DNA of 64,000 bases from Candidatus Gottesmanbacteria bacterium (GCA_963790805.1 CAWBPL010000002.1:1020860-1084859); one strand, 5' to 3'. Shown: positions 1 to 47,007, counted from the stretch's first letter. Notes: generated by a model not told the origin, from the sequence alone. Program-made: numbers and translations.

Positions 1-358
<358 letters not shown>

Positions 359-2383: not shown

Positions 2384-2416
2384 AGAATGAGTCCTCCTTA
2401 CAATAAATTCTTTCTA

Positions 2417-4612: not shown

Positions 4613-5245
4613 ATGGATACTTCGTACGGCATATTGGTGTTGGTTCGTCACGGCGAATCGAAGTGGAACGCAAAAAACGTTTGGACAGGGTTAACCGATA
4701 TCGGATTGACACAAAAAGGCGAGGATGAGGCACGGGAAGCGGCACGAGAGCTGAAAGACATCCATTTTGATCAGGCGTTTACGTCGCTTCTTACGCGTGC
4801 TTCCGAAACACTCCGGATAATTCTTGAAACGTTGGGTATCCCTCATCTTCCCGTGACAAGCGATTCAGCGCTCAACGAACGGGATTACGGGGTCTATACC
4901 GGTAAAAATAAATTTGAAATAAAAGCCAGTTTGGGTGACGGGGAATTTTTAAAGCTTCGGCGCGGGTGGGATTATCCCATCAAAGAGGGCGAGAGCCTTA
5001 AACAGGTGTACGGACGCGTTATCCCCTACTTTGACTCTGTTATTGCGCCATTATTGCGCGAAGGGAAACATATTCTTGTTGTTGCTCATGGAAACAGCCT
5101 GCGGGCGCTGATGAAGAAACTGGATAACGTGTCGGATGAGCAGATAGCCAACGTTGAGCTTGTTACCGGAGAAATTGTCGTCTATCACATAAACTCCGAG
5201 GGCCGGGTCATTTTTCAGGAAAAACGTCGTACGGCGGGTGGATAG
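4613..5245 (+). CDS. gpmA: 2,3-bisphosphoglycerate-dependent phosphoglycerate mutase family (short form)
   Basis: LVLVRHGESKWNAKNVWTGLTD (RHGE histidine-phosphatase motif) and a C-terminal VVAHGNSLRAL. Confidence 0.8.
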   Translation: MDTSYGILVLVRHGESKWNAKNVWTGLTDIGLTQKGEDEAREAARELKDIHFDQAFTSLLTRASETLRIILETLGIPHLPVTSDSALNERDYGVYTGKNKFEIKASLGDGEFLKLRRGWDYPIKEGESLKQVYGRVIPYFDSVIAPLLREGKHILVVAHGNSLRALMKKLDNVSDEQIANVELVTGEIVVYHINSEGRVIFQEKRRTAGG

Positions 5246-5903
5246 AAAGAAATACTGTGTCAAGGACGAGTTTCGGATTGACGTTCAGTTCTAATTCCTT
5301 TTGCGCACCAAGAAGAAGCCTCAAGAGTTTGGTAAGCGTTTTGCGTTTTTCGTTTCCTTTGGCGTCCAAAGCGGCAGATGCGAGTAACTGTGTTGCGGCT
5401 TCAATCGCCTGAGCGGTCCATTCTTTTGCCTGCAGTCTGTCTTTGGCAATCGTTTCAATATATATAAGTTTTTGACCGTTGGAGCCGGCCAGCAGCTGTT
5501 TTAACGCCGTATTCATTTCCGGAATCGCCGGCGCCCTATCGCTGGAGCGGCAATTTACCAGTTCACAGCGAGATACGATTGTCGGCAGAAGCGAAGCCGT
5601 AGAGGGAGCTTCACAAAGTACGAAGACATGTTTTGGCGGCTCTTCCAATAACTTAAGAAGTGCGTTTTGTGCTTCTTGGGTTAGGCGATCGGCCCGTCTG
5701 ATTATGCCGACGCTTTGCGGTGATTGCATTGGGGCGAGGGACAGCCGTTGTTGAAAAAGTCTGACTGCGTCAATGCCGACGCGTTCCTCTTCTTCTCCAA
5801 GCATTACTTGATCGACTTGTGCAGTCTTCCATTTGGTAAGATATTCTTCGATTGTTGTTTCCCGAAGTTTAGCGGTCCCTCCAGTAATGAGATATGCATG
5901 CAT
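5208..5903 (-). CDS. holB: DNA polymerase III delta-prime-like clamp-loader subunit (short)
   Basis: HAYLITGG start, QNALLKLLEEPP and TIVSRC motifs. The likely start is the internal Met (MHAYLITGG) at 5903. It overlaps gpmA convergently by 38 nt. Confidence 0.7.
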   Translation of the reverse strand: MHAYLITGGTAKLRETTIEEYLTKWKTAQVDQVMLGEEEERVGIDAVRLFQQRLSLAPMQSPQSVGIIRRADRLTQEAQNALLKLLEEPPKHVFVLCEAPSTASLLPTIVSRCELVNCRSSDRAPAIPEMNTALKQLLAGSNGQKLIYIETIAKDRLQAKEWTAQAIEAATQLLASAALDAKGNEKRKTLTKLLRLLLGAQKELELNVNPKLVLDTVFLSIHPPYDVFPEK

Positions 5904-6005
5904 AGTAGATAATCTTGCAATATTATGAATAACCATCAATAATAGATGGTAGCGACGTTTCGTCGTTTATTGTAAATTGGTTTGAGGTAAATGTAAATTA
6001 TCGTT

Positions 6006-7727
6006 ATGCCAGGAACTGCCCAAGAGGTATTAGCCATACTCGTTGCTGATCATCACATTAGTCAGTCGGAAGCTGATCTGGTGACGACTGAATCGTTGTC
6101 GAGCGGCGAGCCTATAGATGAAATATTAAAAAAGAAACACCTCGTTGCCGATATCGATTTTGCAAAAGCGAAAGCAAAATCGTTGGGTATCCCCTTTGTG
6201 ACGTTGGAAGGACGTCCAATTTCGCCTGATGTAGTGAAATATCTGCCTGAGCCGGTTGTTCGCCGGTATACCGTTTTGCCATTTCAGTTTGACAGCCAGA
6301 CGAATGAACTTTCGGTTGCGATGGAAGACCCCTTAGATTTTCAGGTGATAGAATTTTTGGAGAAAAAAGCTGGTAAGTCTATTCGGGCGTATATGGCCCT
6401 TAAAGACGATATATTATTGGCTCTTGAGACCGCCTATACGGAAAATTTGGGTGAAGACGTAACGGCCGCCCTCAAAGAGACCGAGACCTCCGAAATAAAA
6501 ACCTATGAAGCCGGTCGTCTGGGAGAAGTTATCCGTGAAGCACCTATTGCCCAAATAGTGTCCGCAACGCTCGAGCAGGCTATGCACCTTCGTGCATCGG
6601 ATGTGCATATAGAGCCTCAAGACGGCGATACGCGAATTCGATATCGCGTTGATGGCATTTTACAGGAACGGCTGGTGCTGCCGAAACGCCTCCATGATGC
6701 AGTGGTATCGCGTATAAAAATTTTGGCGAATATGAAAATAGATGAAAAACGGATTCCGCAGGACGGGCGGTTTAATTTTAAAATGGGTGATTCTGAAGTG
6801 GATCTTCGTGTTTCAACGCTTCCGACTGTTCACGGCGAAAAAATCGTCATGCGGCTTCTTAAGAAATCAGGTGGCATTCCAACGCTTCCGGAATTAGGGC
6901 TTCGCGGATTAGCATTGAAAAATCTTGAAACGACGATAGCGAAACCGCACGGCATTATATTGGTAACTGGGCCTACGGGTTCCGGTAAAACGACCACTCT
7001 CTACGCGGTATTATCGAAACTCAACAACTCGAAGGTGAACATAATGACGCTTGAGGATCCTGTCGAGTATCAGATATCCGGCGTCAATCAGGTGCAAATA
7101 AATCCGCAGGCGGGTCTTACGTTTGCCACCGGTCTTCGGTCTTTTTTACGGCAGGACCCCAATATTATTCTGGTCGGCGAAATTCGCGATCGAGAAACGA
7201 CTGAGCTTGCAATTCAGGCAGCCCTGACAGGTCATCTCGTATTTTCGACACTGCATACTAATGATGCGGCAGGCGCAATTCCGCGGCTTCTTGATTTGGG
7301 TGCAGAACCGTTTTTGGTGACTTCAGCTCTGAACGGTGTAGTGGGTCAGCGAATAGCAAGAAGAATTTGTCCGCAGTGTAAGGAAGAATATGAGCCGGAT
7401 GAGGTGGTCGCAAAAGACATCCGATTGGTACTCGGCAGTTTAATTCCTGAGGGTAAAGCAATGAAGCTCTATCGTGGGAAGGGAACAGTCAATGATCAAC
7501 CGTGTCAAACGTGTAACGGCGCGACGTTTTGGGGACGCATCGGTATATTTGAGGTATTCCCTGTTTTGGATAGCATTGGTAAACTGGTATTAAAGAGGGC
7601 GGCGGTTAATGAAATTCAAGAGCAGGCGGTGAAGGAAGGCATGATCACCATGAAGCAAGACGGATATCTCAAAGCATTAGAAGGTGTTACTACAGTTGAG
7701 GAGGTATTGCGCGTCGCGCAAGATTAA
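6006..7727 (+). CDS. pilB: Type IV pilus assembly ATPase (PilB/GspE family)
   Basis: 573 aa with an N-terminal GSPII/MshEN-like domain, Walker A GPTGSGKTTT, Asp/His boxes, and the tetracysteine CPQC..CQTC typical of PilB. Confidence 0.9.
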   Translation: MPGTAQEVLAILVADHHISQSEADLVTTESLSSGEPIDEILKKKHLVADIDFAKAKAKSLGIPFVTLEGRPISPDVVKYLPEPVVRRYTVLPFQFDSQTNELSVAMEDPLDFQVIEFLEKKAGKSIRAYMALKDDILLALETAYTENLGEDVTAALKETETSEIKTYEAGRLGEVIREAPIAQIVSATLEQAMHLRASDVHIEPQDGDTRIRYRVDGILQERLVLPKRLHDAVVSRIKILANMKIDEKRIPQDGRFNFKMGDSEVDLRVSTLPTVHGEKIVMRLLKKSGGIPTLPELGLRGLALKNLETTIAKPHGIILVTGPTGSGKTTTLYAVLSKLNNSKVNIMTLEDPVEYQISGVNQVQINPQAGLTFATGLRSFLRQDPNIILVGEIRDRETTELAIQAALTGHLVFSTLHTNDAAGAIPRLLDLGAEPFLVTSALNGVVGQRIARRICPQCKEEYEPDEVVAKDIRLVLGSLIPEGKAMKLYRGKGTVNDQPCQTCNGATFWGRIGIFEVFPVLDSIGKLVLKRAAVNEIQEQAVKEGMITMKQDGYLKALEGVTTVEEVLRVAQD

Positions 7728-7729
7728 CT

Positions 7730-8782
7730 ATGGATATTTTTCAATTATTCTCTGAAGCAATTCGTTTAAAAGCATCTGATTTACATATCATTGCCGGTTA
7801 TCCGCCCATGTTGAGAGTTGATGGCAAGTTAGCGCCCGTCGAAGGCACGGCAGTTTTGACTCCCGAAGATACCGCGCAATATATAAATCGGATATTGACG
7901 AGCACTCAAAAAGAGCTTTTCCAAACAAATAAAGAGATTGATTTTTCTATCGGGGTGCAAGGAGGAAGATTTCGCGTCAACGTCTATAACCAGAAAAGTT
8001 CGGTCGGAGCTGACTTTCGATTAATTCCGAATGTTATTCGGTCAATAGACCAATTGGGGTTACCTCCCATTTGTCACGATTTCGCGAAACTTCGGCAGGG
8101 GTTTGTTCTTGTTACAGGGCCAACCGGTCATGGAAAATCAACGACTTTAGCCGCCATGATAAATAAAATAAACGAGACGCATGCGCATCACATTGTTACC
8201 ATCGAAGATCCGATTGAGTACATATACCCGCGAGGTCTTTCAATTATTTCCCAGAGGGAGATGCACCAAGATAGCCATTCATGGAGTGTTGCGCTTCGCA
8301 GTGTTCTTCGGGAAGATCCCGATGTTGTTCTTGTCGGTGAGATGCGGGATCTTGAGACTATTCAGGCCGCGCTGACGATTGCGGAAACCGGTCATTTGGT
8401 GTTTGCGACTCTTCATACCAATTCGGCAGCGCAAACGGTGGACAGAATTGTTGACGTGTTTCCTGAAAATCAACAGGTTCAGGTGCGACTGCAGCTGGCT
8501 GCAGTTATTGAGGGAGTATTATCGCTTCGTCTTGTTCCAGCGGCATCGGGAGGCCGCATCGTCGTTGCTGAAATTATGACAGGAACGCCGGCAATCCGAA
8601 CGACCATCCGAGACGGCAAGACACACCTCATCGATAATATTATCCAAACATCTGCTGAGCTTGGCATGATGCCTTTGGAGACCGCTCTTGCAAATGCCGT
8701 AAAGCAGGGAAAAATTAGCGTGGAAACGGCCACTTCATATGCCGTACATCCGGAAGAGTTAGGCAGAATTTTGAAACTCTAA
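7730..8782 (+). CDS. pilT: Pilus retraction ATPase PilT
   Basis: 350 aa with ASDLHI, Walker A GPTGHGKSTT, LREDPDVVLVGEMRD and GHLVFATLHTNSA. Confidence 0.9.
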   Translation: MDIFQLFSEAIRLKASDLHIIAGYPPMLRVDGKLAPVEGTAVLTPEDTAQYINRILTSTQKELFQTNKEIDFSIGVQGGRFRVNVYNQKSSVGADFRLIPNVIRSIDQLGLPPICHDFAKLRQGFVLVTGPTGHGKSTTLAAMINKINETHAHHIVTIEDPIEYIYPRGLSIISQREMHQDSHSWSVALRSVLREDPDVVLVGEMRDLETIQAALTIAETGHLVFATLHTNSAAQTVDRIVDVFPENQQVQVRLQLAAVIEGVLSLRLVPAASGGRIVVAEIMTGTPAIRTTIRDGKTHLIDNIIQTSAELGMMPLETALANAVKQGKISVETATSYAVHPEELGRILKL

Positions 8783-8792
8783 CTGATACAGT

Positions 8793-10004
8793 ATGGCGCT
8801 CTTTCAATATAAAGCACGAAATCCTGAGGGAAAAATTATTACGGGGCTCGTTGAAGCCCCAAGCGAATCGATCGCCTCCAGATTGCTTCACGATAAACAA
8901 CTGTTTGTTATTGGCGTATCCCGCTCCTCGGAACAGTTTTCATTTGCCAGTTTCAGGCAACAATTCGAGCGGATAGGATTTAATGATATAGTCAATTTTA
9001 CGCGGCAGCTTGCGACGATGATGACTGCAGGATTGTCGCTACCAGAGGCTTTAACCATTCTTCGTTCGCAAACTACAAATAAAGTATTCGCGGCGATGCT
9101 TCAGGATGTCGAACATCAGGTGGTGAGCGGTGGATCATTGGCTGATTCTCTGGCGAAGTATCCCAAAATATTTTCCAATACCTATATTGCGTTGGTTCGG
9201 GCCGGTGAGTCCTCAGGTACAATGGACCGGGTTCTTATGCGGCTTGCGGATATTCTTGAGTCTCAACGGGAATTTCGAAGCCGTGTTCAGGGAGCCATGG
9301 TATATCCAATTATTATCATTATTGCGATGGTTGCGGTTGTTTTCATTATGATGACAGTGGTTGTACCGAAGCTTACCGACCTCTACAAGGATTTTAATAT
9401 GAAATTGCCGCTTTCAACAAGGATGCTTATGGGCGTTTCGTCGTTTTTTGTCCATTGGTGGTGGCTGATGATTCTGACGATTGTCGGTGTGGTTGTCTTC
9501 TTCCAGCGCTGGCGCAAAACACCAGAAGGTGAACTGGTTGTTGACACGCTTATACTCAAAATTCCCCTTTTCGGTGATCTTCAAAAAAAGATTATGCTTG
9601 TGGAATTTACGCGTACTCTTGGTATGCTTATTGCCTCCGGCATTCATATTCTTGAGGGCTTACGAATTCTTCGTGAGTCTCTTGATAATGTCATTTTTCG
9701 TAATGCGATAACTGAAATTGCCAAAAAAGTCGAAAAAGGATTTCCTTTGGGTGACACGTTTTCGCAATATGAAGTATTCCCTCCCATTGTTTCTCAAATG
9801 ATGAAAGTCGGTGAGGAGACCGGTAAGCTTGATGATACGCTTCTTCGGTTATCCACGTATTTTGAAACAGAATCAGATCACCTTGTGAAGGGCCTCACAA
9901 CCGCCATTGAACCGCTTATTATGGTAGTTTTGGGAGTGGGTGTGGGATTTATCGTTATATCCGTTATTACTCCCATATATAACTTAACAAGTTCCTTTCA
10001 ATAA
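8793..10004 (+). CDS. pilC: Type IV pilus platform protein PilC/GspF
   Basis: 403 aa with two GspF repeats and three TM segments. It follows pilB-pilT in the usual operon order. Confidence 0.9.
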   Translation: MALFQYKARNPEGKIITGLVEAPSESIASRLLHDKQLFVIGVSRSSEQFSFASFRQQFERIGFNDIVNFTRQLATMMTAGLSLPEALTILRSQTTNKVFAAMLQDVEHQVVSGGSLADSLAKYPKIFSNTYIALVRAGESSGTMDRVLMRLADILESQREFRSRVQGAMVYPIIIIIAMVAVVFIMMTVVVPKLTDLYKDFNMKLPLSTRMLMGVSSFFVHWWWLMILTIVGVVVFFQRWRKTPEGELVVDTLILKIPLFGDLQKKIMLVEFTRTLGMLIASGIHILEGLRILRESLDNVIFRNAITEIAKKVEKGFPLGDTFSQYEVFPPIVSQMMKVGEETGKLDDTLLRLSTYFETESDHLVKGLTTAIEPLIMVVLGVGVGFIVISVITPIYNLTSSFQ

Positions 10005-10070
10005 AAGGGTCGGGGCCAGTGCTTGACAACGGTGAAGTCAAGATGATACACCATATACAGAGGTACAAAT

Positions 10071-10631
10071 ATGAAACATACTGCCCTTCTTTGGTCATCT
10101 CGTAGAGGTTTTACGCTTATCGAGCTTCTCATCGTCATTGCACTTTTGGGAGCACTTGCTGTAGGGCTTCTTGCTACGATTGATCCGTTTGAACAACTGA
10201 AAAAAGGCCGCGACACCTCGACAAGAAATACAGTATCAGAGTTTTATGATGCGACGCTTCGGTATCATTCCACGAAAGGTCAATTGCCATGGGCCACAGC
10301 ATCGCCGGCCACGTTTCAGGGAGTTCCAATATATCCGACTGCCGACGGAGGGGGTAATTTAACTGCCTATGCACAGAATCTGGTTGATACCGGTGAATTA
10401 AAAGACAAGTTTGTTGAATTGGCAGGTACGGGAAATCTGGCAAAAATTTTTGTTTCATCAACAGCTCCGGAACAGGTAGCAGTGTGTTTTATGCCTGAAT
10501 CAAAGAGTTTCCAGATGGATCCGGCCACTATATATACCCAACAAGGGTATAGCGGAGATCAGGGGGATCCCAACTGTAAATCACTGAAGAATTCCCTGAC
10601 CGGAGATAATTGTTATTTCTGTGTGCAATAA
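10071..10631 (+). CDS. Type IV pilin, candidate major subunit
   Basis: Class III signal RRGFTLIELLIVIALLG (G/F cleavage site, Glu+5) and C-terminal Cys residues (CKSL..NCYFC) able to form a D-region-like loop. It is the first pilin after pilC and has its own 66-nt upstream spacer. Confidence 0.85.
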   Translation: MKHTALLWSSRRGFTLIELLIVIALLGALAVGLLATIDPFEQLKKGRDTSTRNTVSEFYDATLRYHSTKGQLPWATASPATFQGVPIYPTADGGGNLTAYAQNLVDTGELKDKFVELAGTGNLAKIFVSSTAPEQVAVCFMPESKSFQMDPATIYTQQGYSGDQGDPNCKSLKNSLTGDNCYFCVQ

Positions 10632-10668
10632 AGCAGCTGCCTAGACATCCTTTGCGCATATCTGTTTC

Positions 10669-12647
10669 ATGAGCAGCATACTTGCTATTTTTAGCTTCAT
10701 TCTGTTTGTATGTTTTCAGGCGCAGCACATCACTCCAGGTGACGGCGGCGATCTTTTAACGGCGGCGGCAACCCGTGGCGTCCCCCACCCTCCGGGGTAT
10801 CCACTCTATACGATGCTCGGTTGGTTATTAAGTCATATCCCAGCCGGTACGATTGTATGGCGCATTGGATTATTGTCTTCAATCCCTCACGCGCTCGTCG
10901 TGGGATTGATGTACGTTATTGTTCTGCGATTAACGCGGCGTAGGAGCGCAGGGGTATTCGCCTCTTTGCTTCTTATCGGAAATTATCTGTTTTTTCTCTA
11001 CAGCGTAACGCCGGAAGTATTCGCGCTGTTGGATTTTTTTGTCATTGTACTAACGTATTTAGCCCTTCGCTGGCAAAAATCGCACGACATGCGTTTTCTC
11101 GATGGCATTTTTTTATTGCGGGATTGTCGCTTACCCATCATCAGGTGATTTTCTTTTTCTTTCCGGCACTTGCAGTATTTTTTTGGCTGCAAAAACGATA
11201 TATACATTTTTCGACAATACTCATTCCTTCTATCGGATCGTTTCTGTTGGGGTTACTACCCTATATGTATATCCCTCTGGCGGCGCGCGGGAATTCGATC
11301 ATTAATTGGGATCGCGCGACGACGTGGACGAATTTTATTCGACTGCTCACGCGGATGGATTACGGTACGTTTCATTCCGGAATCGCGATGGGACAGTTGC
11401 CTTTGCAGCGATTGATTCAGGTGCAAACATATGTACAGTATGTGATTCTAGATTTTACATGGGTAGGTATTTTTCTTCTCTTGATTGGATTTATTGGATT
11501 ATGGCGATTGAATAAACACATGTTTTGGTTGCTTCTTGTTGCCGCGTTTAGTTTGGGACCTGCATTTATGTTTTACGCAAGTTTCCCGCTTGTTAGTCGA
11601 TTTTCACTTGCTACATATGAGCGATTTTTATTGCCTTCGTATGTGCTTGTTGTTGTCGTTATCGGATTTGGATTTTCCGTTGTTTTAGGTTGGGTACAAC
11701 GGCGAGTACGTAAGCTCGCAGCGTCGCCTACCATGGTAGCCCGTACGTTTTTAGCAATATGTTTTTTGTACCCTTTGACGATGAGCGCGCTCTCAGTCTG
11801 GAAATTAGCGGGCTTCAGCGAGGACCGGTCGGCTGAAAATTTAGCTATGGATGTATTGACGAGTTTACCCAAAGGCAGTGTTTTGCTTTTGGATCGCGAT
11901 ACAGAGTTATTTACATCTCAATATATGCGGTATGTCGAGCATGTGCGCGACGATGTCGTTCTTCTTCATGCCATTCGGTTATCATCACCTGATTATCAAC
12001 AGGTGGTTGGGCGCGTATATCCCACCCTGCCGCTGCCTAAAAAAATCGACGAACAATCGTTTGCAACATTTCTACAACTCATGGCGACACGGTCTCATGT
12101 GTTTTCCACCACAAAATATACGGTAGAAGATTCATGGCAATGGATGCCGTACGGATTGGTATATCAATTGGTTAAGAAAAATGATGCGTTAACAATTGCT
12201 TCAATGAACGATAAAAACGCCCACATTTGGGCTACCGTGCATAATCCGGCTTCCGATCGACTGGCAAAATACGATTTAATGCTTACCGATGTTGGAGACA
12301 TCTATGCGTCAGCGCGACTCGAATTTGGTAAAAGCCTTCTTACGTCCAACGATTTTTCCGGTGCAAAAGAGCAAATCACCAAAGCGATCGCGTACAACGG
12401 TGATACGGATATTGCGGATGCATATATGTACCGAGGTGTAAGCGAATATTTTCTTAAAGAATGCGGGAGCGCGCTTGTAGATTTTGAAACATCACAAAAC
12501 ATCGCGTATTCACCGAATAAACAGATATTTTTATATGAAGCTATGACCTACCGTGACTGTGTGGGCGACTTGAAGCGCGCCCAACAGCTTTTCGATCGTT
12601 ATTCGTCAGAGCAAGTAGATACTCAAACTCCATTGCAAAAATTGTAA
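10669..12647 (+). CDS. DUF2723 / TMEM260-like GT-C membrane glycosyltransferase with a C-terminal TPR-like region, interrupted by a 1-nt frameshift
   Basis: The N-terminal motif GDGGDLLTAAATRGVPHPPGYPLYTMLGWL is the DUF2723 signature. ORFs 10669..11148 (frame 1) and 11124..12647 (frame 3) join across the T7 run at 11108-11114, reading ..LDGIF/FIAGLSLTHHQ... Confidence 0.7.
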
Positions 12648-14790
12648 TACCCAACGAGATGACGCTTATCCATGCACCCAATAGAAAACTTTTTGGTAAA
12701 TAATAGATTTTGACCGTATGTGAGCCTTTAGGGAGTAAGACACCGATATGCTTGATATTTACAGGAAACACTTCAATTTCTTTTCCATCAATCGTTGCGT
12801 GCCAACCGGGATAATACGTTTGGGTGAGTACAAGTATTGATTTTTCTCCGGTCGTTCGCGTTTTAATTGAGTATTCCCCTTCGTGTGAGGCGACAATTGT
12901 TGCAGCGCCATCTCCTGAGGTTGATAGTACATCGCGATCATTTTCAACAAGAACCGTTTTGCCTGGCACAAACGCCTCTTCCTGTATTGCGTTAACGGCA
13001 TCGTTAATGGTGGTGACCTTCATTGTTTGAGTAGCTATATAGACAGACGCAGCTGCCTGACTATTTTCAAAAAGGAGGATTCTATGCGACGGGTCGGTAA
13101 GTTCCACTTTTTGCCGTAATCCGGTATTTTGTACCGACAGGGTGCTAATGACGTTGTCAACGGCGAGCATATTGAGTAATTTACTGCCTGTTGCGCTTAT
13201 GGTCGCGTAAGAATCATCCGTCGTAATGGTTTGATCCAATAAATCATTAAATACTTGGGATCTTCTCAGTGTTCGCCCAACATAATCCTTGATTTGAGAA
13301 ACCTGCCAAAGCATATTTTTGTCCGGTGTCAGGGTATTGCGAAGGATAAACGACGGATCAACATTGGCTTTCGATAAGGACCAGCCTTTTAGCTGATAGG
13401 TATTGTTATAGAGAAGTTCCCCGCCGATTGTCAGCGTATAGCCGGGAAGCATGTATGGAATAAATGACGGCGGTTTCAACCATTCTGAGGCTTGTTCTAT
13501 GGCATGATACGGAGACCAGATGAGAAATATAGTCAAAATTTGGATAACTATGGCAAATATCGCACAAAGCCACGTTATCCGTTTTTGAATATAAGTCATA
13601 AAAAGCGCATGAAGGGAATGAACGCTTATGACGATAAGAGCGATAATGAAAAGCCAGATAAAGCGCGACGGGACGCGAAATATCGTAAACGGCCAGAACG
13701 AGAAAATAAAATACAGCGGTGAGTTTCGTCCTGTCATAAGAAGGAACGACGCGATGAGGATAAGCAGAAAAAATACAATTGAAGATGTTGCTGAACTGCG
13801 ACGTATTTTTTTGCCGCCATGCCATAAACGGATGGCAACAAAGCCGAGGATACTAAGGAGCGGAACAATGCCGATATATGCCGTGTTTTCCCAAAAAATA
13901 CTTCCGTTAAATACAACATAATTCGGATATGTGCCTGTTGCCGGATTACCGAGGAGGTACGGATCTATAAGTGTCAGAAGGTGTTTAAAGGGGTATGAAA
14001 ATATTGTCGCCTGATCAGGTAAAAATTGATTGGTAGTAATGTTCGAAAGAAATTCGACTGATGGAACTATCTGTATTGCGGCTATTGCCATTGCCATTAT
14101 ACCTGCCACGACGAGTTTGGTCGTTGTGAAAAATTTATGAGAGGCGGATTTCAGAAGCCACGCCCAATAGGCCGCGATGAAAAGAAGCGTGATAAACGTA
14201 CTCTGAGGAAATCCGATAAGTATTTGTTGCGCAAGTACTAATGTAAGCCAGCCCGCATATTTCCACTGTCTTGATGTTGCGAGTTTATGCGTGAGAACCG
14301 CAATAAGGGGAAACAGCGAAAGACTTTGAATAAGTGTTAGATGAGTAAGCTGAACAATGCTGTACCCTGATAATGCCATTGTTATAGATCCGAAGAGTGA
14401 TGGCAATGGATGGTAGTTGAGACTGCGTAACCACCAGTACATACCCCACCCTATGATACAAAGCGTGAGAACGATAGAAATATTGTATGCATATATTGTT
14501 GGCAGAAATCGAAAGAGAATGAGATTCGGGAGGTAGAACGTTCCCATTTCTCCTGTTGCGTATAAGGGAACGCCGCCGCCGATTTGCGAATCCCAGAGTG
14601 GCAAATGACCGCTTTTTAATTCATTCGCATAAAAATATTTCGTCGCATAGCTAAATACGGCATCGCTTTCTCCAAAGTCCGGCGTAATTATAAGTCTGGG
14701 AGCAGGAATAAATAGTCGAAGAAAAAACAATGCGACGACGACCGCAATGGTTATCAATGCATAACGATCGAGCATTCTTTGATTGTTCAT
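12541..14790 (-). CDS. YfhO-like polytopic membrane protein (GT-C-type glycosyltransferase family)
   Basis: About 750 aa with more than 12 TM segments and a large C-terminal extracytoplasmic domain. The N-terminal FGESDAVFSYATKYFYANELKSGHLPLWDSQIGGGVPL resembles YfhO. The likely ATG is at 14790 (MNNQRML). The 3' end overlaps the DUF2723 gene convergently by 107 nt. Confidence 0.55.
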   Translation of the reverse strand: MNNQRMLDRYALITIAVVVALFFLRLFIPAPRLIITPDFGESDAVFSYATKYFYANELKSGHLPLWDSQIGGGVPLYATGEMGTFYLPNLILFRFLPTIYAYNISIVLTLCIIGWGMYWWLRSLNYHPLPSLFGSITMALSGYSIVQLTHLTLIQSLSLFPLIAVLTHKLATSRQWKYAGWLTLVLAQQILIGFPQSTFITLLFIAAYWAWLLKSASHKFFTTTKLVVAGIMAMAIAAIQIVPSVEFLSNITTNQFLPDQATIFSYPFKHLLTLIDPYLLGNPATGTYPNYVVFNGSIFWENTAYIGIVPLLSILGFVAIRLWHGGKKIRRSSATSSIVFFLLILIASFLLMTGRNSPLYFIFSFWPFTIFRVPSRFIWLFIIALIVISVHSLHALFMTYIQKRITWLCAIFAIVIQILTIFLIWSPYHAIEQASEWLKPPSFIPYMLPGYTLTIGGELLYNNTYQLKGWSLSKANVDPSFILRNTLTPDKNMLWQVSQIKDYVGRTLRRSQVFNDLLDQTITTDDSYATISATGSKLLNMLAVDNVISTLSVQNTGLRQKVELTDPSHRILLFENSQAAASVYIATQTMKVTTINDAVNAIQEEAFVPGKTVLVENDRDVLSTSGDGAATIVASHEGEYSIKTRTTGEKSILVLTQTYYPGWHATIDGKEIEVFPVNIKHIGVLLPKGSHTVKIYYLPKSFLLGAWISVISLGITIFAMEFEYLLALTNNDRKAVGRASSRPHSHGRS

Positions 14791-14873
14791 GGTTGAAAGT
14801 GTATAGATTTTCCTATGAGTTCGCAAGGCACTAATCTCTTGACAACAGTGGCATTGCAGCTGACACTAGAAGT

Positions 14874-15623
14874 ATGGTTGTTTTCGTTAGCATCTTAGGC
14901 CTACTTATAGGATCATTCTTAAATGTGCTTATTGATCGGTTGCCCAAAGGCCAAAATGTTTTCTGGGGAAGGTCACACTGTGATTATTGTAAACGGACGC
15001 TTCGATGGTATGAACTCATCCCCTTGGTTTCGTTTTTCTGGCAACGGGGAAAATGTGTACGGTGCCACCGCTCGCTTTCTTGGCAATATCCTCTTATTGA
15101 AGCGATGACGGGAATCGGATATTTTTTGATCTGGGGTATGTTTAATCAATCTACAACTTTACTTGTCGCTTCGCTCATCCTATTCAGTTCCCTGCTTGTC
15201 ATTACGATTTCCGATTTAAAATACCAAATCATTCCCGACAGCATGATCATAACGGGAGGTATCGGTACGATTCTCCTTTTTTTGAACAACGTATCGTATG
15301 CTTTTATTGCCGAACACGTTCTTACCGGACTCGCGACGTCTGTATTTTTTCTGTTTCTCTGGCTTCTCACGAAAAAGCGCGGCATAGGACTGGGTGATGT
15401 AAAAATTTCCTTTTTATTGGGCCTCTTGCTAGGGTATCCAGAGATTATCATGGCGCTCTATATAGCATTCTTGACTGGGGCAATCGTGGGTGTCATACTG
15501 ATTTTAGGGGGTAAAAAGAAACTCAAAAGCAAAATTGCTTTTGGTCCGTTTCTTATTCTTGGCGTAGCCGGAACGCTCTGTTTCAACCCGATTTTATTAT
15601 CATTATGGCACACAATATTCTAA
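14874..15623 (+). CDS. pilD: Prepilin peptidase (A24 family)
   Basis: Zinc-ribbon CDYCKRTLRWYELIPLVSFFWQRGKCVRC, a polytopic body, and the GLGDVK aspartyl-protease motif. Confidence 0.9.
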   Translation: MVVFVSILGLLIGSFLNVLIDRLPKGQNVFWGRSHCDYCKRTLRWYELIPLVSFFWQRGKCVRCHRSLSWQYPLIEAMTGIGYFLIWGMFNQSTTLLVASLILFSSLLVITISDLKYQIIPDSMIITGGIGTILLFLNNVSYAFIAEHVLTGLATSVFFLFLWLLTKKRGIGLGDVKISFLLGLLLGYPEIIMALYIAFLTGAIVGVILILGGKKKLKSKIAFGPFLILGVAGTLCFNPILLSLWHTIF

Positions 15624-16051
15624 ATAAACGTGCGGGTTTTACGCTTTTGGAGCTTCTCATCGTAATAGCCATTATCGGTATTCTTATTTCTGTCGGCGTT
15701 GTTTCCTATTCACAGGCGCAAAAGAAGTCGAGAAACAGCAGAAGGCGAAGCGATATTAAAGCGCTTCAAAATGCGTGGGAGCAATATTACGCAGACCATA
15801 ACAGTACGTACCCCAACGTCAATGGCGGTTGTCCCGATGCGAGCGCCATGTCAACGTATCTGCCGGCGGGGTTTCCAACCGATCCCAAGGACGGATCATC
15901 ATATATTGTCTCCTGCGGCACTCAACTTGCGCCATCCTACATATTTTGTGCTGCCCTAGAAGGAGAGACGGGAAACGCGGACGGAACGGGAAATTATAAT
16001 CCCTCCGCTCCTGCGGTCAAAGATCATTTTTGTGCATCAAATTTGCAATAA
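15605..16051 (+). CDS. Type IV pilin-like protein
   Basis: Prepilin signal KRAGFTLLELLIVIAIIGIL and paired Cys residues in the C-terminal half. Confidence 0.8.
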   Translation: MAHNILNKRAGFTLLELLIVIAIIGILISVGVVSYSQAQKKSRNSRRRSDIKALQNAWEQYYADHNSTYPNVNGGCPDASAMSTYLPAGFPTDPKDGSSYIVSCGTQLAPSYIFCAALEGETGNADGTGNYNPSAPAVKDHFCASNLQ

Positions 16052-16052
16052 C

Positions 16053-16535
16053 ATGACAAAACAAACGCACAGCCTCGGATTTACTCTTTTGGAGTTATTG
16101 GTGACCGTCACGATTATTGCGATTCTGACGTTGATAGGTATTGTATCGTATGCTTCCGTAAACAGACGGTCGCGCGACGTGAAGCGGAAAAGCGATTTAG
16201 AGGAAATTCGATCAGCTCTTGAAATGTACCGTTCAGATAACGTGAATGGAGGTGTTTACCCATCGGAGGGAAACGGAAGTTGGACGCCAGCCGGCAGTCT
16301 GAAAGCTGATTTGGTGTCGACGTATATTCCTGCGGTACCTGACGATCCTAACGGTACTAATCATTATCAGTATATGGGTATCCAGACAAATAACGTGTAC
16401 AGTTCTTATTGTTTGTGCGCTTGTCTCGAAAGTAATAATTGCGACGGTACGAATCCGGCAAATATCGTTTCAAATACATGCCCAAATACAGTCAGTACGA
16501 GGGTAGATTGTAATTATTACCTCAAAAATCCATGA
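16053..16535 (+). CDS. Type IV pilin-like protein
   Basis: HSLGFTLLELLVTVTIIAIL and a Cys-rich C-terminus. The start was moved to the internal Met (MTKQTH) just after the upstream stop. Confidence 0.75.
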   Translation: MTKQTHSLGFTLLELLVTVTIIAILTLIGIVSYASVNRRSRDVKRKSDLEEIRSALEMYRSDNVNGGVYPSEGNGSWTPAGSLKADLVSTYIPAVPDDPNGTNHYQYMGIQTNNVYSSYCLCACLESNNCDGTNPANIVSNTCPNTVSTRVDCNYYLKNP

Positions 16536-17029
16536 AAGGGTTTACCCTTATCGAAGTGATGGTATCCGTAGCGGTTGCTCTGTTGGTTACGGGATTCATC
16601 ATTGCGAATTATAATTCGTATAACGACGTTCAGGTGTTAAAACAGGCCGCGTTAACACTTAAAAATAACCTGCGGTTTGCGCAATCAAAAGCGATGAACG
16701 GGCAAATACCGACTCCCACACCCATGAATGCACCGCCGATTTGTTCCACGTTGGTTGGATATACCGTCACGTTTACTCCGCCATCTTCTTATACGATTCA
16801 GGCTTTTTGTGATCCAGAGGGTTTGCAGGGAGATAAACTATTGATACCACTACCGGGTGGCGTTACATTTTCAACCTCTACTCCGCCTCCGGCTCTGATA
16901 ACATTTAACGTATTGTCACGAGGTACCACCTTACCCAGCGTGACAACAATAACGCTGACGGGATTTAATAAAACATATTCGTTACAGGTAAGCCCGAGCG
17001 GCGATGTCAGCGATTTGGGATTGAAGTAA
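16532..17029 (+). CDS. Minor pilin / pseudopilin-like protein
   Basis: MKGFTLIEVMVSVAVALLV at the N-terminus. The start overlaps the previous stop (ATGA coupling). Confidence 0.7.
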   Translation: MKGFTLIEVMVSVAVALLVTGFIIANYNSYNDVQVLKQAALTLKNNLRFAQSKAMNGQIPTPTPMNAPPICSTLVGYTVTFTPPSSYTIQAFCDPEGLQGDKLLIPLPGGVTFSTSTPPPALITFNVLSRGTTLPSVTTITLTGFNKTYSLQVSPSGDVSDLGLK

Positions 17030-17035
17030 TCGTAT

Positions 17036-17497
17036 ATGAAAAACTACAGAACGAGAGGTCAAACAATTATTGAGGTAATCGTTGTTATCGGTATCGTTGT
17101 TGTTTTGACAACGGGACTCATTGCGGGAACAACATCCTCTTTAAAGTCAGCACAAAGCGATCGATCCCGCAGCGAAGCCGTCAAGTACGCGCAGGAGGGA
17201 ATTGAGGTTGCGCGACAGTTGCGTGACGAGAATTGGGATACGTTTTTTAGTTATGGCGGTTCGGTGTATTGCTTAGGGAGTGATGCAAAGGGGAATACGA
17301 ATTTTGTTGTTTCAACAGGTGGTCAATGTCCAACCAACATAATGATGCAAGATGGAACGCTGAGTATTTTTACGAGGAGCGTGCAGTTTGCGTGGCAAGG
17401 AAACAGCGGTATGCAGATTGTCGTAACCGTTTCATATCCTGAGAATTCTCAAACAAAAAATGTACAGCTGACAACATATTTAACGCAATGGCGATAA
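17036..17497 (+). CDS. Minor pilin-like protein (degenerate signal)
   Basis: RGQTIIEVIVVIGIVVV has Glu+5 and a hydrophobic helix, but G-Q replaces the usual G-F. Confidence 0.55.
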   Translation: MKNYRTRGQTIIEVIVVIGIVVVLTTGLIAGTTSSLKSAQSDRSRSEAVKYAQEGIEVARQLRDENWDTFFSYGGSVYCLGSDAKGNTNFVVSTGGQCPTNIMMQDGTLSIFTRSVQFAWQGNSGMQIVVTVSYPENSQTKNVQLTTYLTQWR

Positions 17498-17501
17498 TTG
17501 T

Positions 17502-18065
17502 ATGATGAGAAGGAAAATTGTTCGTCAATCAGGTGGTTTTACCTTATTGGAAACTCTTGTAGCCATTAGTGCTATAGCAACAGTTGGTATATTAATAACG
17601 CAGGTGTTTTTTACGACTACCCGTTCAAATACAAAGGCTGAATTATTAAAAGATGTAAAACAGAACGGTGATTATGCAATGGAGATTATGAGTCGAACGA
17701 TACGAAATTCGGTGGCGGTCATTTCCGATTGTGCGGCGACGGGAACGGCGCTTGATGCGCTGGAATTAGAAAATTTCGACGGCAATAATACGCAGTTTAG
17801 CTGTTTTTTTGATGGCAAAGAGACCCGTATCGCTTCTACAAGTGCAACAACCGGAAGTTCAGAGTACTTAACGAGTTCAAACGTGACCTTAGGCGGTGCG
17901 TCCTGTGACGATACCGCAAATACGCTAAAATTTACCTGCACGTCATATGCAGATCAGCCGCCAAAAATTACTATTCAGTTTCAACTCGCTCAAAGTACTA
18001 TTGCGAGCGGTCAATTTGAACAGGCAAACATCTCTTTCCAAACGACAGTATCGCCAAGGAATTAG
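17502..18065 (+). CDS. Minor pilin-like protein
   Basis: SGGFTLLETLVAISAIA prepilin-type N-terminus. Confidence 0.7.
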   Translation: MMRRKIVRQSGGFTLLETLVAISAIATVGILITQVFFTTTRSNTKAELLKDVKQNGDYAMEIMSRTIRNSVAVISDCAATGTALDALELENFDGNNTQFSCFFDGKETRIASTSATTGSSEYLTSSNVTLGGASCDDTANTLKFTCTSYADQPPKITIQFQLAQSTIASGQFEQANISFQTTVSPRN

Positions 18066-18110: not shown

Positions 18111-18938
18111 ATGAAACAGAGATTTTCTTCTGGTCAGGTGGTGCTTATCACTCTTCTTGTTTTAACGATCGCAACGACGGTTGCGCTATCCCTGATCGCC
18201 CGCACGACTACCGATACGACGATTACGAATCAGGTCGAAGAGTCTTCCAAGGCGTTTAGTGCTGCAGAGGCAGGAGTTGAAGAAGCCCTCAAGACAGGGA
18301 ATCCAAGCACCCAAGTGTTATCCTCGGGTGTATCGTATAACGTGAATGTTGGATCGGTTGGGGGTGCGACGGGTGTCTATGCTTTTCCTAAAATTACTCA
18401 AAAAGGCACGACGGAAACGCTTTGGCTTGTTGAGCATAATCAAACCACAGGAGCGCTTGATGAAACGACTCCATATCGGGGTTCTTCGATAGATGTTTGC
18501 TGGAGTAGCGGGGATGTTATACCGGCGCTTCTGGTGACGATTTTATACAAAGACCACATATCTCAAACATATCGCGTAGTAAAGCAGGCGTACGATCCGG
18601 ACCCAGTGCGTGCGGCAACTGATAAATTTAGCTCAACCTATATTCCGGGAGGATGCAGCGATACAAACACAACGTACAAAGAAACAATCACATTTGCGCC
18701 GGCGATAGATCCTGCAAATGACACGCTTATTGCGCTTCGAATTCGACCGCTCTTTAACGATACGAGGATAGAAATTGATAGCGGCGATATTCAACTAGCC
18801 AAACAAGGTGACCGGATTGAATCAACGGGTACAACAACAGAGGGGATAAACAGGAAAATAATCGTGTATCAGCAGTATCGTGCACCTGCAAGTGTATTTG
18901 ATGCCGCTTTGTATAGTGAAAATTCATTAAGTTATTAA
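18111..18938 (+). CDS. PilX-like pilus-associated protein
   Basis: N-terminal SSGQVVLITLLVLTIATTVALSL hydrophobic helix without Glu+5, positioned after the minor pilins. The assignment rests on context only. Confidence 0.4.
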   Translation: MKQRFSSGQVVLITLLVLTIATTVALSLIARTTTDTTITNQVEESSKAFSAAEAGVEEALKTGNPSTQVLSSGVSYNVNVGSVGGATGVYAFPKITQKGTTETLWLVEHNQTTGALDETTPYRGSSIDVCWSSGDVIPALLVTILYKDHISQTYRVVKQAYDPDPVRAATDKFSSTYIPGGCSDTNTTYKETITFAPAIDPANDTLIALRIRPLFNDTRIEIDSGDIQLAKQGDRIESTGTTTEGINRKIIVYQQYRAPASVFDAALYSENSLSY

Positions 18939-18986: not shown

Positions 18987-20006
18987 ATGAATACTACAGT
19001 CGGTCTGGATATAGGTTCCCACAGTATTAAGCTTATTGAAATTGCGAAAGAAGGCAACCAAATCGCATTATTAGCTGCAGGAAGCATGCCGACTCCTCCA
19101 AAGTCTATGACGTCTTCCTTGCAGGTGGATCTGGAAGCGGCTGCAATTGCGATCAAACAGCTCGTTCGCGATACTGGGACAAAATCCCATGAGGTTTCTA
19201 TCGCTCTGCCTGAATCCAAAGTGTTTACCCGTGTTATAGAGGTTCCCCAACTCTCGACGCGTGAGCTTACAAGCGCTATTAAATGGGAGGCCGAGCAATA
19301 TATCCCGTTACCGCTCGATCAAGTGAATGTTGACTTTACAGTACTTCGAGACAGTCAGGTTACTGGAACCAATAAAATGGAGGTTTTACTTGTCGCGGCA
19401 CCCAAATCATTAATGGATAAATATTTAACCATCCTTGAGTTTGCAGGACTTACCGCGGTGGGAGCTGAAACTGAGATTATCGCGACTTCACGCGCAATCG
19501 CCCGCTCCATTCCCAATGTGCGGAACGTTATGGTAGCATCACTCGGCGCGCAAACGACAGATATAGCAATATTAAACAATGGTATTTTGACATTTACTCG
19601 ATCCGTGAGTGCCGGAGGGGAAGCGATTACTCGGGCAATTGCCCAGAGCTTAGATTTTAATCTCACGCAGGCGGAAGAGTATAAGCGGACATACGGGTTA
19701 CAAAAAGATAAACTTGAAGGAAAAATAGTGAATGCCACGAAACCCATTATGGATACCATCGTCAACGAAATGAAACGGTCAGTGGCATTTTATGAGGAAA
19801 AATATAAAGATCAGCATATCGAAACGATTATGTTAAGCGGCGGGACTTCTCGGTTGCCTGGCATGGTTATTTATTTGGCAGAAAGCATGAATTTCGAAGT
19901 ACAGTTAGCAAATCCATGGATTGGCATCGCGCGCGATTCCCGATTTAATGTGTTAAACGCCGAAGGACCTAATTTTTGTATTGCGGTTGGTCTCGCGTTG
20001 CGATAA
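18987..20006 (+). CDS. pilM: Pilus assembly protein PilM (actin-like ATPase fold)
   Basis: 339 aa with VGLDIGSHSIKLIE (phosphate-1 motif) and LSGGTSRLPG. It has the usual position before the pilN/O-like genes. Confidence 0.8.
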   Translation: MNTTVGLDIGSHSIKLIEIAKEGNQIALLAAGSMPTPPKSMTSSLQVDLEAAAIAIKQLVRDTGTKSHEVSIALPESKVFTRVIEVPQLSTRELTSAIKWEAEQYIPLPLDQVNVDFTVLRDSQVTGTNKMEVLLVAAPKSLMDKYLTILEFAGLTAVGAETEIIATSRAIARSIPNVRNVMVASLGAQTTDIAILNNGILTFTRSVSAGGEAITRAIAQSLDFNLTQAEEYKRTYGLQKDKLEGKIVNATKPIMDTIVNEMKRSVAFYEEKYKDQHIETIMLSGGTSRLPGMVIYLAESMNFEVQLANPWIGIARDSRFNVLNAEGPNFCIAVGLALR

Positions 20007-20014
20007 ATATTATT

Positions 20015-20563
20015 ATGGCATCCTCACAGAACACGATTAATCTTATTCGTACTAAAACCAGCTCGTCTCCCCAACTGGAGGCTATTGAGGCAAGTTTGAA
20101 AAAGACCGGTTATGTAGGTTTGATCGGTTTTTTGAGCGTAAGTTTCGTTCTTGTCGTCGTGTATCTCTTTTTTTTCCAGGAAAAAAACCGTTTGCAGACA
20201 ATCCATGAGAGTCTTACGAATCAATTGATCGCTAACTCCCAAAAAGAGGCAATGTACGTTTCCATAAAGGATAGGACAAATATCGTGTCAAAAGCATTAA
20301 CGAGTCAAAGGCCATGGACGCAATTGTTAGACCAAATAACTTCATTTGTACAGCCTCCGACACTGTCGGATATATCCGTAGATGATCAGGGTAAAATTAC
20401 CATGAGTATAAAAGCGGATTCGGTTGATTCGATGCTTCAAGTTATTAACGGGATTATTGCAGAAACGCAAAATAACGAAATTGTTAATCCACAACTTGTT
20501 TCGTTTCAGCTTGGTAAAAACGACAGCATTCAATCAACGATATCTTTTTTTGGTGTATTTTGA
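20015..20563 (+). CDS. PilN-like bitopic membrane protein
   Basis: Short cytoplasmic N-terminus (INLIR), a single TM segment, then a periplasmic-type domain. It follows pilM directly. The start was chosen at the internal Met. Confidence 0.5.
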   Translation: MASSQNTINLIRTKTSSSPQLEAIEASLKKTGYVGLIGFLSVSFVLVVVYLFFFQEKNRLQTIHESLTNQLIANSQKEAMYVSIKDRTNIVSKALTSQRPWTQLLDQITSFVQPPTLSDISVDDQGKITMSIKADSVDSMLQVINGIIAETQNNEIVNPQLVSFQLGKNDSIQSTISFFGVF

Positions 20564-21312
20564 CGCGTATGAAAGAAGTAAATAAATTTTTTCAAACATA
20601 TCGGGAACTCATTATAGCCGTTTCGATGATCGCGGTAACCATTGTCGGAATCATTTTTGGTATCATACCAGCAGTCGATAAAACGATTGCACTTCGTGAT
20701 GAAACTCAAAGTCTTTCGACGAGTAATAATACACTTCAAACAAAACTCAATTTATTAAATGCCAACGACGAATCTGTATATCGAGACCAACTTCAAGAAT
20801 TAATCGCAGCCGTTCCTACCGATAAATCTTTAACAACGCTTTTTTCAACAATCGATGGGGTCAGCGCGTTAAGCGGTATTACTGTTTCAGATTTGACGCT
20901 CTCAAATCCAGGTTCTCTTGCTACCGGATCAGCGACGAAGCAATCAAACGAAGAAAAGCAAATAGGCAGCAACCTCTTACCGTTTACGGTCACGGTTGTA
21001 GGAAGTTATGATCAGGTACATTCTTTTTTGTTGCAAGTTGTTCAGGTACGAAGATTTTTTAGAGTCAGAAACTTTGAGATATCATTTGAAGATATGGCGA
21101 ATATTATAGTTCATATTGGTATGGATGCATATTACTTTCCTTTATCATCGAGCATTGTGTCGGCTGATACTCCTTTGGCCCCAATGACACAAAAAGAGCT
21201 CGATGTTATTGCAACCATTCAAAAAATGCCCGTTGTAGGACAAAACACCCTCACCCCCTCCGGCGCCGCACCAACTATCGGATCACCGCGGGCAGATCTT
21301 TTTTCTCCTTAA
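20560..21312 (+). CDS. PilO-like bitopic membrane protein
   Basis: Single TM segment, then a coiled-coil (LQTKLNLLN) and an alpha/beta domain. It is coupled to the preceding gene by an overlapping start and stop. Confidence 0.45.
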   Translation: MTRMKEVNKFFQTYRELIIAVSMIAVTIVGIIFGIIPAVDKTIALRDETQSLSTSNNTLQTKLNLLNANDESVYRDQLQELIAAVPTDKSLTTLFSTIDGVSALSGITVSDLTLSNPGSLATGSATKQSNEEKQIGSNLLPFTVTVVGSYDQVHSFLLQVVQVRRFFRVRNFEISFEDMANIIVHIGMDAYYFPLSSSIVSADTPLAPMTQKELDVIATIQKMPVVGQNTLTPSGAAPTIGSPRADLFSP

Positions 21313-46998: not shown

Positions 46999-47007
46999 CT
47001 GAGTCTA

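Follow-up and report, generated by a model that had tools for sequence, protein, structure and literature searches.

Why should two genes for glycosyltransferase-like membrane proteins interrupt a type IV pilus locus and separate the major pilin gene from pilD, the prepilin peptidase gene? The question is raised by a stretch of 64,000 nucleotides from a Candidatus Gottesmanbacteria bacterium (GCA_963790805.1 CAWBPL010000002.1:1020860-1084859), here called the window, with positions counted from its first letter. The best protein matches likewise assign this ultra-small organism to Candidatus Gottesmanbacteria, in the Candidate Phyla Radiation/Patescibacteria, and the contig it comes from measures 1.22 Mb. 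There, a TMEM260-like (DUF2723) gene directly follows the major pilin gene, and a YfhO-family gene lies between it and pilD. We asked whether these two genes form an accessory cassette for pilin glycosylation at the outer side of the cytoplasmic membrane. We worked in silico, from the order and families of the genes, the folds predicted for their products, the conservation of catalytic residues and of synteny, and the way the cassette co-varies with pilin type. We lean toward the view that they do form such a cassette. That the TMEM260-like enzyme acts on pilins seems reasonably probable; for YfhO we hold this with less confidence. The cluster is laid out as follows.

6006-7727, plus strand: pilB, a type IV pilus motor gene (Pfam T2SSE and MshEN).
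7730-8782, plus strand: pilT, a type IV pilus motor gene (Pfam T2SSE).
8793-10004, plus strand: pilC, the platform gene (Pfam T2SSF).
10071-10631, plus strand: major prepilin gene, 186 amino acids (N_methyl PF07963, TIGR02532; leader ...SSRRG|FTLIELL).
10669-12647, plus strand: TMEM260-like/DUF2723 gene of the GT-C class, in two pieces (PF11028).
12541-12647, both strands: convergent 3' overlap of 107 nt, with stop codons at 12645-12647 (TMEM260-like gene) and 12541-12543 (YfhO gene).
12541-14790, minus strand: YfhO-family gene of the GT-C class, 749 amino acids (PF09586).
14791-14873, no strand: divergent spacer of 83 nt between YfhO and pilD, from the gene coordinates.
14874-15623, plus strand: pilD, prepilin peptidase (A24_N_bact plus Peptidase_A24).
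15605-18065, plus strand: five prepilin-like minor pilin genes (N_methyl matches, two of them weak, and T2SSG).
18111-18938, plus strand: PilX_N-like gene (PilX_N match).
18987-21312, plus strand: pilM, a pilN-like gene, and pilO (Pfam PilM_2 and PilO).

With assembly and retraction ATPases, a platform protein, a prepilin peptidase, PilM/N/O, and prepilins, this is a type IV pilus cluster. The major prepilin has four Cys residues and a conserved C-x-x-P-E-S-K-S-F-Q-x-D-P loop. A Pfam scan of the cluster proteins found no secretin family among them. These coordinates and matches agree with an earlier note on this DNA, which had described the pilus gene order, the families of the two inserted genes, and a cluster without a secretin; the stop positions likewise bear out its convergent YfhO gene with a 107-nt overlap. 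Its word "operon," however, was too strong, because YfhO sits on the opposite strand. As a result, pilD and the genes downstream of it need a promoter of their own in the 83-nt divergent spacer, which presumably harbors promoters for both YfhO and pilD. We found no convincing consensus promoter in this spacer, and no convincing attenuating terminator, as in Pseudomonas cassettes, in the 37-nt spacer between the pilin gene and the TMEM260-like gene.

The TMEM260-like gene is frameshifted in the window, as described below, and we analyzed the protein obtained by repairing its frame. Searches with the Pfam DUF2723 and YfhO hidden Markov models, a check that the earlier note had suggested, exceeded the curated cut-offs for both proteins. 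The repaired TMEM260-like protein scored 83.5 bits against PF11028 (cut-off, 24.2; E=2e-23), with a match that crosses the frameshift junction. The YfhO protein scored 74.7 bits against PF09586 (cut-off, 28.5), and nearly all of its orthologs were assigned to the same family. No NCBIfam model matched the TMEM260-like window protein. An ortholog profile matched human TMEM260 (9rql_A) at E=1.2e-63 over the whole membrane domain, from profile positions 8-464 to chain residues 34-490. In that match, GD25GGD28...HPPGYP aligns with the TMEM260 loop GGD52SGE...HPPGYP, which makes D25 the equivalent of D52. The D52A substitution abolishes the activity of human TMEM260 (PMC10214176). D25, D28, and HPPGY are invariant in a 25-sequence ortholog alignment, and D25 is also kept in the sequences examined from Candidatus Eisenbacteria, a second lineage taken up below. 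More widely, HPPGY occurs in all 232 homologs (232/232) and GDxG[DE] in 224 of the 232.

The predicted structures are in keeping with these families. In the AlphaFold2 (AF2) model of the repaired protein (predicted local distance difference test [pLDDT], 86; predicted template modeling score [pTM], 0.84), about 11 transmembrane (TM) helices are followed by an alpha/beta plus TPR-like domain, and TPR matches fall at profile positions ~553-620. Its best Foldseek matches in the PDB were PglB, ArnT, DPY19, and EmbA/B, with modest TM-scores of 0.41-0.51. The AF2 model of YfhO (pLDDT, 87; pTM, 0.88) matched AftD, STT3/OST, PglB, AglB, and Pmt4. The first outer loop of YfhO, after the first helix, carries TPD38FGxSD43, in which the invariant residues D38 and D43 are the putative catalytic ones. 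A PDB sequence search with the YfhO profile gave no match, and the window protein matched the PgfM1 and PgfM2 models only weakly, at its C-terminal end (E~1e-6, far short of the cut-offs). Both window proteins are thus modeled as GT-C enzymes. The GT-C signatures that had been proposed for both find support in the AF2 and Foldseek results, in the D52 equivalent, and in the invariant Asp in the first loop of YfhO.

Is the position of the TMEM260-like gene next to a pilin gene conserved? A survey anchored on this gene took in 80 loci from species-representative genomes, which were compared with the window's pilus proteins. The order pilBTC-pilin-TMEM260-like-YfhO (convergent)-pilD-minor pilins-pilMNO recurs in Gottesman-, Woese-, Levy-, and Curtissbacteria-type genomes and in other Microgenomates of the Candidate Phyla Radiation (CPR), and it persists down to about 25-30% identity between the TMEM260-like proteins. 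In at least 22 CPR loci, a same-strand prepilin gene lies directly upstream of the TMEM260-like gene with a gap of 0-145 nt; three further CPR loci are backed only by partial or tblastn matches. No prepilin motif was found within up to ±10 kb of the TMEM260-like gene in 49 loci from other lineages, most of which belong to other phyla, such as Verrucomicrobiota, Gemmatimonadota, Elusimicrobiota, and Planctomycetota. In a crude neighbor-joining tree, used only to see separate CPR and Eisenbacteria clusters, the pilus-linked CPR proteins group together. The earlier note had let its proposal depend on the linkage to pilus genes being conserved in relatives. It is conserved there, and it recurs in an unrelated diderm lineage.

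The sole other hint of pilin linkage outside the CPR and Eisenbacteria clades is a single prepilin-like motif in an Elusimicrobia locus (L081, 8566-8751), about 1 kb downstream of the TMEM260-like gene. We reject chance adjacency in view of the conserved synteny and of the pilin-free surroundings of the TMEM260-like genes of other lineages.

The diderm lineage is Candidatus Eisenbacteria. In one of its loci (L080), pilB, pilC, and a pilin gene lie directly before a TMEM260-like gene whose ortholog family is large. Three orthologs at 52-71% identity (L163, L164, and L165) share one operon order: a cytochrome c554-like gene, an unknown gene, pilB, pilC, a gene for a 126-amino-acid pilin, the TMEM260-like gene, three minor pilin genes, a gene for an NHL-repeat protein, pilM, a pilO-like gene, and a secretin gene. 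The Eisenbacteria-type proteins form a cluster apart from the CPR ones in the crude tree. The same pilin-TMEM260-like order in CPR and Eisenbacteria means that two distantly related lineages, a monoderm and a diderm one, have the adjacency. A tblastn search of the Eisenbacteria ortholog against plasmids gave no match. No pilT or pilD was found in the Eisenbacteria-type stretches of L163, L164, L165, and L080 (about 200-14000 of each). This operon may be type II secretion system-like or a specialized pilus system.

How widely the cassette is shared among CPR pilus loci was seen in a second survey, anchored on pilD, of 34 loci from Joint Genome Institute metagenomes with at least 4.5 kb upstream of pilD. 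The TMEM260-like gene was present in 8 of the 34 loci and YfhO in 6. All four of the closest relatives had both genes, and most other CPR loci had pilC, a pilin gene, and pilD with nothing between. Because 26 of the 34 loci lack it, the cassette is not needed for pilus assembly. It is an optional, lineage-specific add-on.

The cassette also goes with one type of pilin. The C-terminal half of this pilin type reads C..P-x-SKSFQ-x-DP...C..CxWC[VT]Q. Among 32 pilD-anchored loci carrying both pilC and pilD, it occurred in 5 of 6 loci with the cassette versus 1 of 26 without it (Fisher's exact test, p about 2e-4, for loci that are not phylogenetically independent). Of the 21 CPR pilins encoded just before a TMEM260-like gene, 19 have the Ser of the P-x-S-K loop. 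In one CPR locus (L114), the gap between pilC and pilD is 667 nt, with a cassette-type pilin (…DPDSKSESSKPETKY…CYWCAQ) and no TMEM260-like gene; this could be a case of cassette loss.

These distributions bear on whether the TMEM260-like protein is an enzyme at all. As a non-enzymatic factor for pilus assembly or stability, it would serve as a TPR scaffold as in PilF/PilW-type proteins. That the gene is absent from most CPR pilus loci speaks against such a role, as does the absence from CPR pilus clusters of any secretin to pilot. Nor would a pure scaffold be expected to keep a catalytic Asp and a GDxGD...HPPGYP loop invariant. The scaffold would account for the C-terminal TPR-like repeats, for a weak match of the Eisenbacteria ortholog to TIGR02521 PilW (E=7e-5, far below the cut-off), and for the low-ranked appearance of PilF (2ho1) in Foldseek. 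Taken with the points against it, we regard this role as highly improbable.

The second gene of the cassette is more variable. The tail-to-tail overlap is kept in relatives (L002-L017, L033, and L085): among the 19 with convergent genes, 17 show one of 11-302 nt, even at ~30% protein identity. The conserved coding overlap may reflect genome compaction or antisense/transcriptional coupling. In another relative (L083), YfhO is co-directional rather than convergent. Two relatives (L022 and L024) have pilD directly after the TMEM260-like gene. In four others YfhO is missing, and the slot between the TMEM260-like gene and pilD is filled by a gene for a membrane protein of ~385 amino acids.

L018, 11953-13104: slot protein gene.
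L021, 11224-12423: slot protein gene.
L031, 10249-11397: slot protein gene.
L038, 11982-13130: slot protein gene.

The slot protein matched PMT_2 in both of the loci scanned, just above the curated cut-off in L018 and below it in L021, and this match makes it a member of another GT-C family. YfhO is tied to the pilus less tightly than the TMEM260-like gene.

What is known of YfhO proteins widens the range of possible substrates. The YfhO-family proteins PgtC2, PgfM1, and PgfM2 are streptococcal protein O-glycosyltransferases, as shown experimentally, and their GT2 partners make the undecaprenyl phosphate (Und-P)-linked sugar (PMC12041528). These enzymes O-glycosylate surface proteins, and the targets of the family include teichoic acids as well as disordered, Ser/Thr-rich stretches in many membrane proteins (PMC12041528). 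The earlier note had given teichoic acid glycosylation as the role of YfhO; this is a known role but not the sole one, since proteins are modified too (PMC12041528). Both GT-C enzymes might then be general glycosyltransferases of the envelope and of surface proteins (Ser/Thr-rich secreted proteins, an S-layer, or wall polymers), with pilins not their substrate or not their only one. The pilus neighborhood would then come only from clustering and co-regulation of surface-structure genes. The window does encode predicted secreted or membrane-anchored proteins with Ser/Thr/Pro-rich tracts, such as TTPTPTPT and STPTPSDTPQTQQTTVTNTSSS.

38385-38984, minus strand: predicted secreted or membrane-anchored protein, Ser/Thr/Pro rich.
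38971-39675, minus strand: predicted secreted or membrane-anchored protein, Ser/Thr/Pro rich.
40898-43174, minus strand: predicted secreted or membrane-anchored protein, Ser/Thr/Pro rich.

None of the three has a Pfam match, and they are possible acceptors of O-glycosylation. The pilins of the cluster, for their part, have no strongly Ser/Thr-rich disordered tail, and the varying presence of YfhO at the locus also fits general glycosylation. General glycosylation does not fit well with the start of the TMEM260-like gene lying 0-145 nt from the major pilin stop in two unrelated lineages, or with the co-variation of the cassette with pilin type. Human TMEM260, moreover, is not a broad enzyme: it is protein specific, acts on folded domains, and uses a polyprenol-phosphate sugar donor (PMC10214176). 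In other phyla, TMEM260-like genes lie away from pilin genes, so that the pilus-linked clades look specialized. We therefore consider general glycosylation unlikely, though far from negligible, and favor pilins as the substrate of the TMEM260-like enzyme.

The TMEM260-like gene of the window itself poses a separate problem. The earlier note had given 10669-12647 as one gene, but a listing of open reading frames (ORFs) shows two frames and not one continuous ORF.

10669-11148, plus strand: 5' piece, 159 codons, frame 1, from ATG at 10669 to TGA at 11146-11148; TM1-TM4 and the GD25GGD28...HPPGYP loop.
11108-11114, plus strand: T7 homopolymer, the site of frame loss; T8 would give an intact protein of 659 amino acids.
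11115-12647, plus strand: 3' piece, frame 3; the other TM helices and the C-terminal domain (extracytoplasmic; alpha/beta plus TPR-like).

The ORF listed for the 3' piece starts with TTG at 11124 and has 507 amino acids, and the source genome's annotation holds only a C-terminal product of 460 amino acids. This genome, as assembled, has no intact coding sequence for the TMEM260-like gene. Inserting one T in silico opens a frame of 667 codons and restores ...RFLDGIF-FIAGLSLTHHQ... across the junction. The repaired product of 659 amino acids can be aligned over its full length with intact orthologs of 650-670 amino acids (42-53% identity), and no gap falls at the junction. The frameshift is either a loss of the first glycosylation step in this genome or a homopolymer assembly error.

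A true pseudogene would mean that the cassette is decaying in this genome and that the pilin here is not modified by the TMEM260-like enzyme, whatever happens in relatives. The loss of frame within the T7 run and the genome's own truncated gene call fit this explanation. Logan contigs of run ERR11594402 agree with the window at every position over 15.7 kb, without a single indel, even in eight other homopolymer runs of at least 7 nt, which argues that the assembly is not generally indel prone. However, the frameshift lies in a stretch that these independent contigs do not cover: two contigs end at 10596 (the end of the pilin gene) and at 11446, and the 850 nt between them (10597-11445) hold the frameshift and three T-runs. 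Look-ups with the pilin and with the 159-amino-acid ORF found no independent assembly copy. A crude homopolymer-editing scan of the 64 kb turned up no second homopolymer frameshift within a gene; the scan mostly flags ordinary gene junctions and so is weak evidence on assembly quality. Both pieces are otherwise ortholog-like, with no further stops or signs of decay, and homopolymer length is the commonest assembly error. On this mixed evidence, a pseudogene is a serious possibility, which we put forward only tentatively. The contig breaks that flank 10597-11445 could reflect strain-level polymorphism at the pilin C terminus and the start of the enzyme gene.

A third explanation would leave the gene functional as it stands. 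The T7 run reads T_TTT_TTA at 11108-11114, a canonical X_XXY_YYZ heptamer in the zero frame, and a programmed -1 ribosomal slip there would reach the correct downstream frame and yield the full-length enzyme. But all 24 of the aligned orthologs (24/24) are uninterrupted over the junction, the orthologs listed are full length (623-699 amino acids, the source genome's truncated call excepted), and the downstream 90 nt fold no better than shuffled sequences (z=-1.5). With uninterrupted orthologs and no downstream RNA structure, a programmed slip is unsupported, and we think it hardly credible.

How does the proposed cassette compare with known pilin-modifying systems? Its closest functional analog is TfpW, the D-arabinofuranosyltransferase of Pseudomonas aeruginosa group IV pilin, in which acidic residues of the first outer loop are essential (10.1101/2020.04.19.049825; PMC11841053). 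TfpW, a GT-C enzyme of 646 amino acids, combines 11 TM helices with a TPR domain in the periplasm; it is encoded right after pilA and glycosylates pilin (10.1101/2020.04.19.049825). Both are GT-C proteins of ~650 amino acids in which 11 TM helices are joined to a large TPR domain outside the cytoplasm, and both are encoded by an optional accessory gene tied to pilin type. The TMEM260-like gene starts 37 nt past the pilin stop, and its TM-plus-TPR layout is as in TfpW-type enzymes. We compared the two by published motifs and architecture, and in motifs they differ: TfpW has DDX in loop 1 and YX6PFX7P in loop 4, whereas the window protein has the TMEM260 signature GDxG[DE]...HPPGYP. Neither TfpW motif occurs in the window protein or in the 8 homologs checked for both, and none of the 232 TMEM260-like homologs (0/232) has DD within its first 90 amino acids. 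The cassette here also differs in adding a second GT-C partner, and no genes of a D-arabinofuranose pathway were seen in the window.

Human TMEM260 shares with the window protein the homology of the TM domain, the catalytic Asp (D52/D25), and the layout of 11 TM helices plus a TPR-like domain. It differs in its place and its acceptors, which are the IPT domains of plexins, cMET, and RON in the endoplasmic reticulum; the acceptor proposed here is a bacterial pilin. For the YfhO family (YfhO of Bacillus subtilis and Listeria, and streptococcal PgtC2, PgfM1, and PgfM2), what the window protein shares is PF09586, a GT-C fold, and a first loop with acidic residues. TfpO/PilO of P. aeruginosa group I and PglL of Neisseria are, like the enzymes proposed here, membrane enzymes that glycosylate pilin outside the cytoplasm. 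They belong to an O-antigen-ligase-like family and use oligosaccharide donors linked to undecaprenyl diphosphate. No O-antigen-ligase-type (Wzy_C) Pfam domain is found in either GT-C protein of the window. In gene order, tfpO directly follows pilA (10.1101/2020.04.19.049825).

A full-text literature search found no paper that joins DUF2723/TMEM260 with pilins; DUF2723 was mentioned only by the TMEM260 paper, and no function of bacterial DUF2723/TMEM260 homologs was reported in the literature searched. The TMEM260-like family thus appears to be new for pilins, in line with the earlier note's view that these families are not normally linked to pilin glycosylation, which the absence of the TfpW motifs also supports. 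A YfhO gene inside a pilus cluster, convergently overlapping another GT-C gene, has not been described before. It is quite possible, though we would not claim more, that the TMEM260-like enzymes of monoderm CPR Microgenomates and diderm Eisenbacteria are dedicated pilin O-glycosyltransferases. They would form a third, so far unrecognized system beside TfpO/PglL and TfpW, in which two enzymes act in relay and the second, a GT-C enzyme, can be swapped (YfhO or PMT_2-like).

Such enzymes would need a lipid-linked sugar, and the only candidate for its synthase in the window lies in another region, with a loose association at most.

53585-54331, minus strand: GT2, candidate synthase of the lipid-linked sugar donor (Pfam Glycos_transf_2).

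This protein matched NCBIfam models for dolichyl-phosphate hexose transferase and AglJ at E~4e-35, below the curated cut-offs, and PpgS at 2e-16. YfhO-family enzymes work with a GT2 partner that makes the Und-P-sugar; a GT2-YfhO pair is seen in one relative (L014), where a gene for a 236-amino-acid Dpm1-like GT2 lies immediately upstream of YfhO and is co-directional, and none is adjacent in the window. Two other relatives (L011 and L034) have GT2 genes near the cassette. The region around 53585-54331 is a low-GC island (45700-54799; 0.29-0.33 versus ~0.45) with glycan biosynthesis genes. These encode a Wzx-like flippase, a TupA-like ATP-grasp protein, three GT4s, a 15-TM DUF2206 protein, the AglJ/dolichyl-phosphate-hexose-transferase-like GT2, and a DUF1616 protein. 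Several families of the island are mainly archaeal, which suggests that it was horizontally acquired.

Several points weigh against pilin glycosylation by this cassette. The support for the proposal is genomic context and homology, and the synteny counts behind it are not phylogenetically independent. In this window the TMEM260-like gene is interrupted, and the cassette is missing from most of the sampled CPR pilus loci. YfhO is absent from some loci, replaced in others, and co-directional in L083, and the secreted proteins with Ser/Thr/Pro-rich tracts encoded elsewhere in the window are of the kind that streptococcal YfhO-type enzymes typically modify. Finally, no GT2 or flippase gene lies inside the pilus cluster; the nearest candidate is 40 kb off in the separate glycan island.

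If the cassette does glycosylate pilins, the pathway might run as follows. As the families of these proteins suggest, a cytoplasmic GT2 would join a hexose to polyprenyl phosphate, after which the lipid-linked sugar would be flipped outward. The TMEM260-like enzyme, with its predicted 11 TM helices, would have its catalytic Asp in the first outer loop and its alpha/beta plus TPR-like domain facing outward. The TPR-like domain may recognize the membrane-anchored, folded pilin before assembly, and the enzyme would transfer the sugar to a Ser or Thr of the pilin. The conserved Ser of the P-x-S-K loop could be the site, which is speculation. A second GT-C enzyme, YfhO here and PMT_2-like elsewhere, might add a further sugar or modify other sites or pilins and so diversify the glycan. 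As the pilA-accessory cassettes of P. aeruginosa do, the cassette would accompany one particular pilin type.

Type IV pili, the chief surface organelles of CPR bacteria, matter to these organisms: in cultivated CPR members, attachment to hosts needs them, and pilin glycosylation there has been described as unexplored (PMC11623550). A recent study of Saccharibacteria pili had CPR pilin glycosylation only as a prediction. Pilin accessory cassettes as such are an established concept, and they defend against pilus-specific phages; in Pseudomonas, pilin glycosylation by accessory enzymes provides the shield (PMC11841053). That the CPR cassette is conserved yet optional and varies together with pilin type points to a comparable role in an arms race. 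What is new here is that the accessory GT-C glycosyltransferase encoded beside the pilin comes from a family with no earlier tie to pili and has a swappable second GT-C enzyme as its companion. Bacterial DUF2723/TMEM260 homologs gain from it a concrete, testable function, for which a candidate acceptor loop (P-x-S-K) and the catalytic residues are named. If the proposal is true, the bacterial relatives of a human disease gene would have a function for the first time. The proposal would also hint that a metazoan domain-specific O-mannosyltransferase descends from pilus-decorating enzymes.

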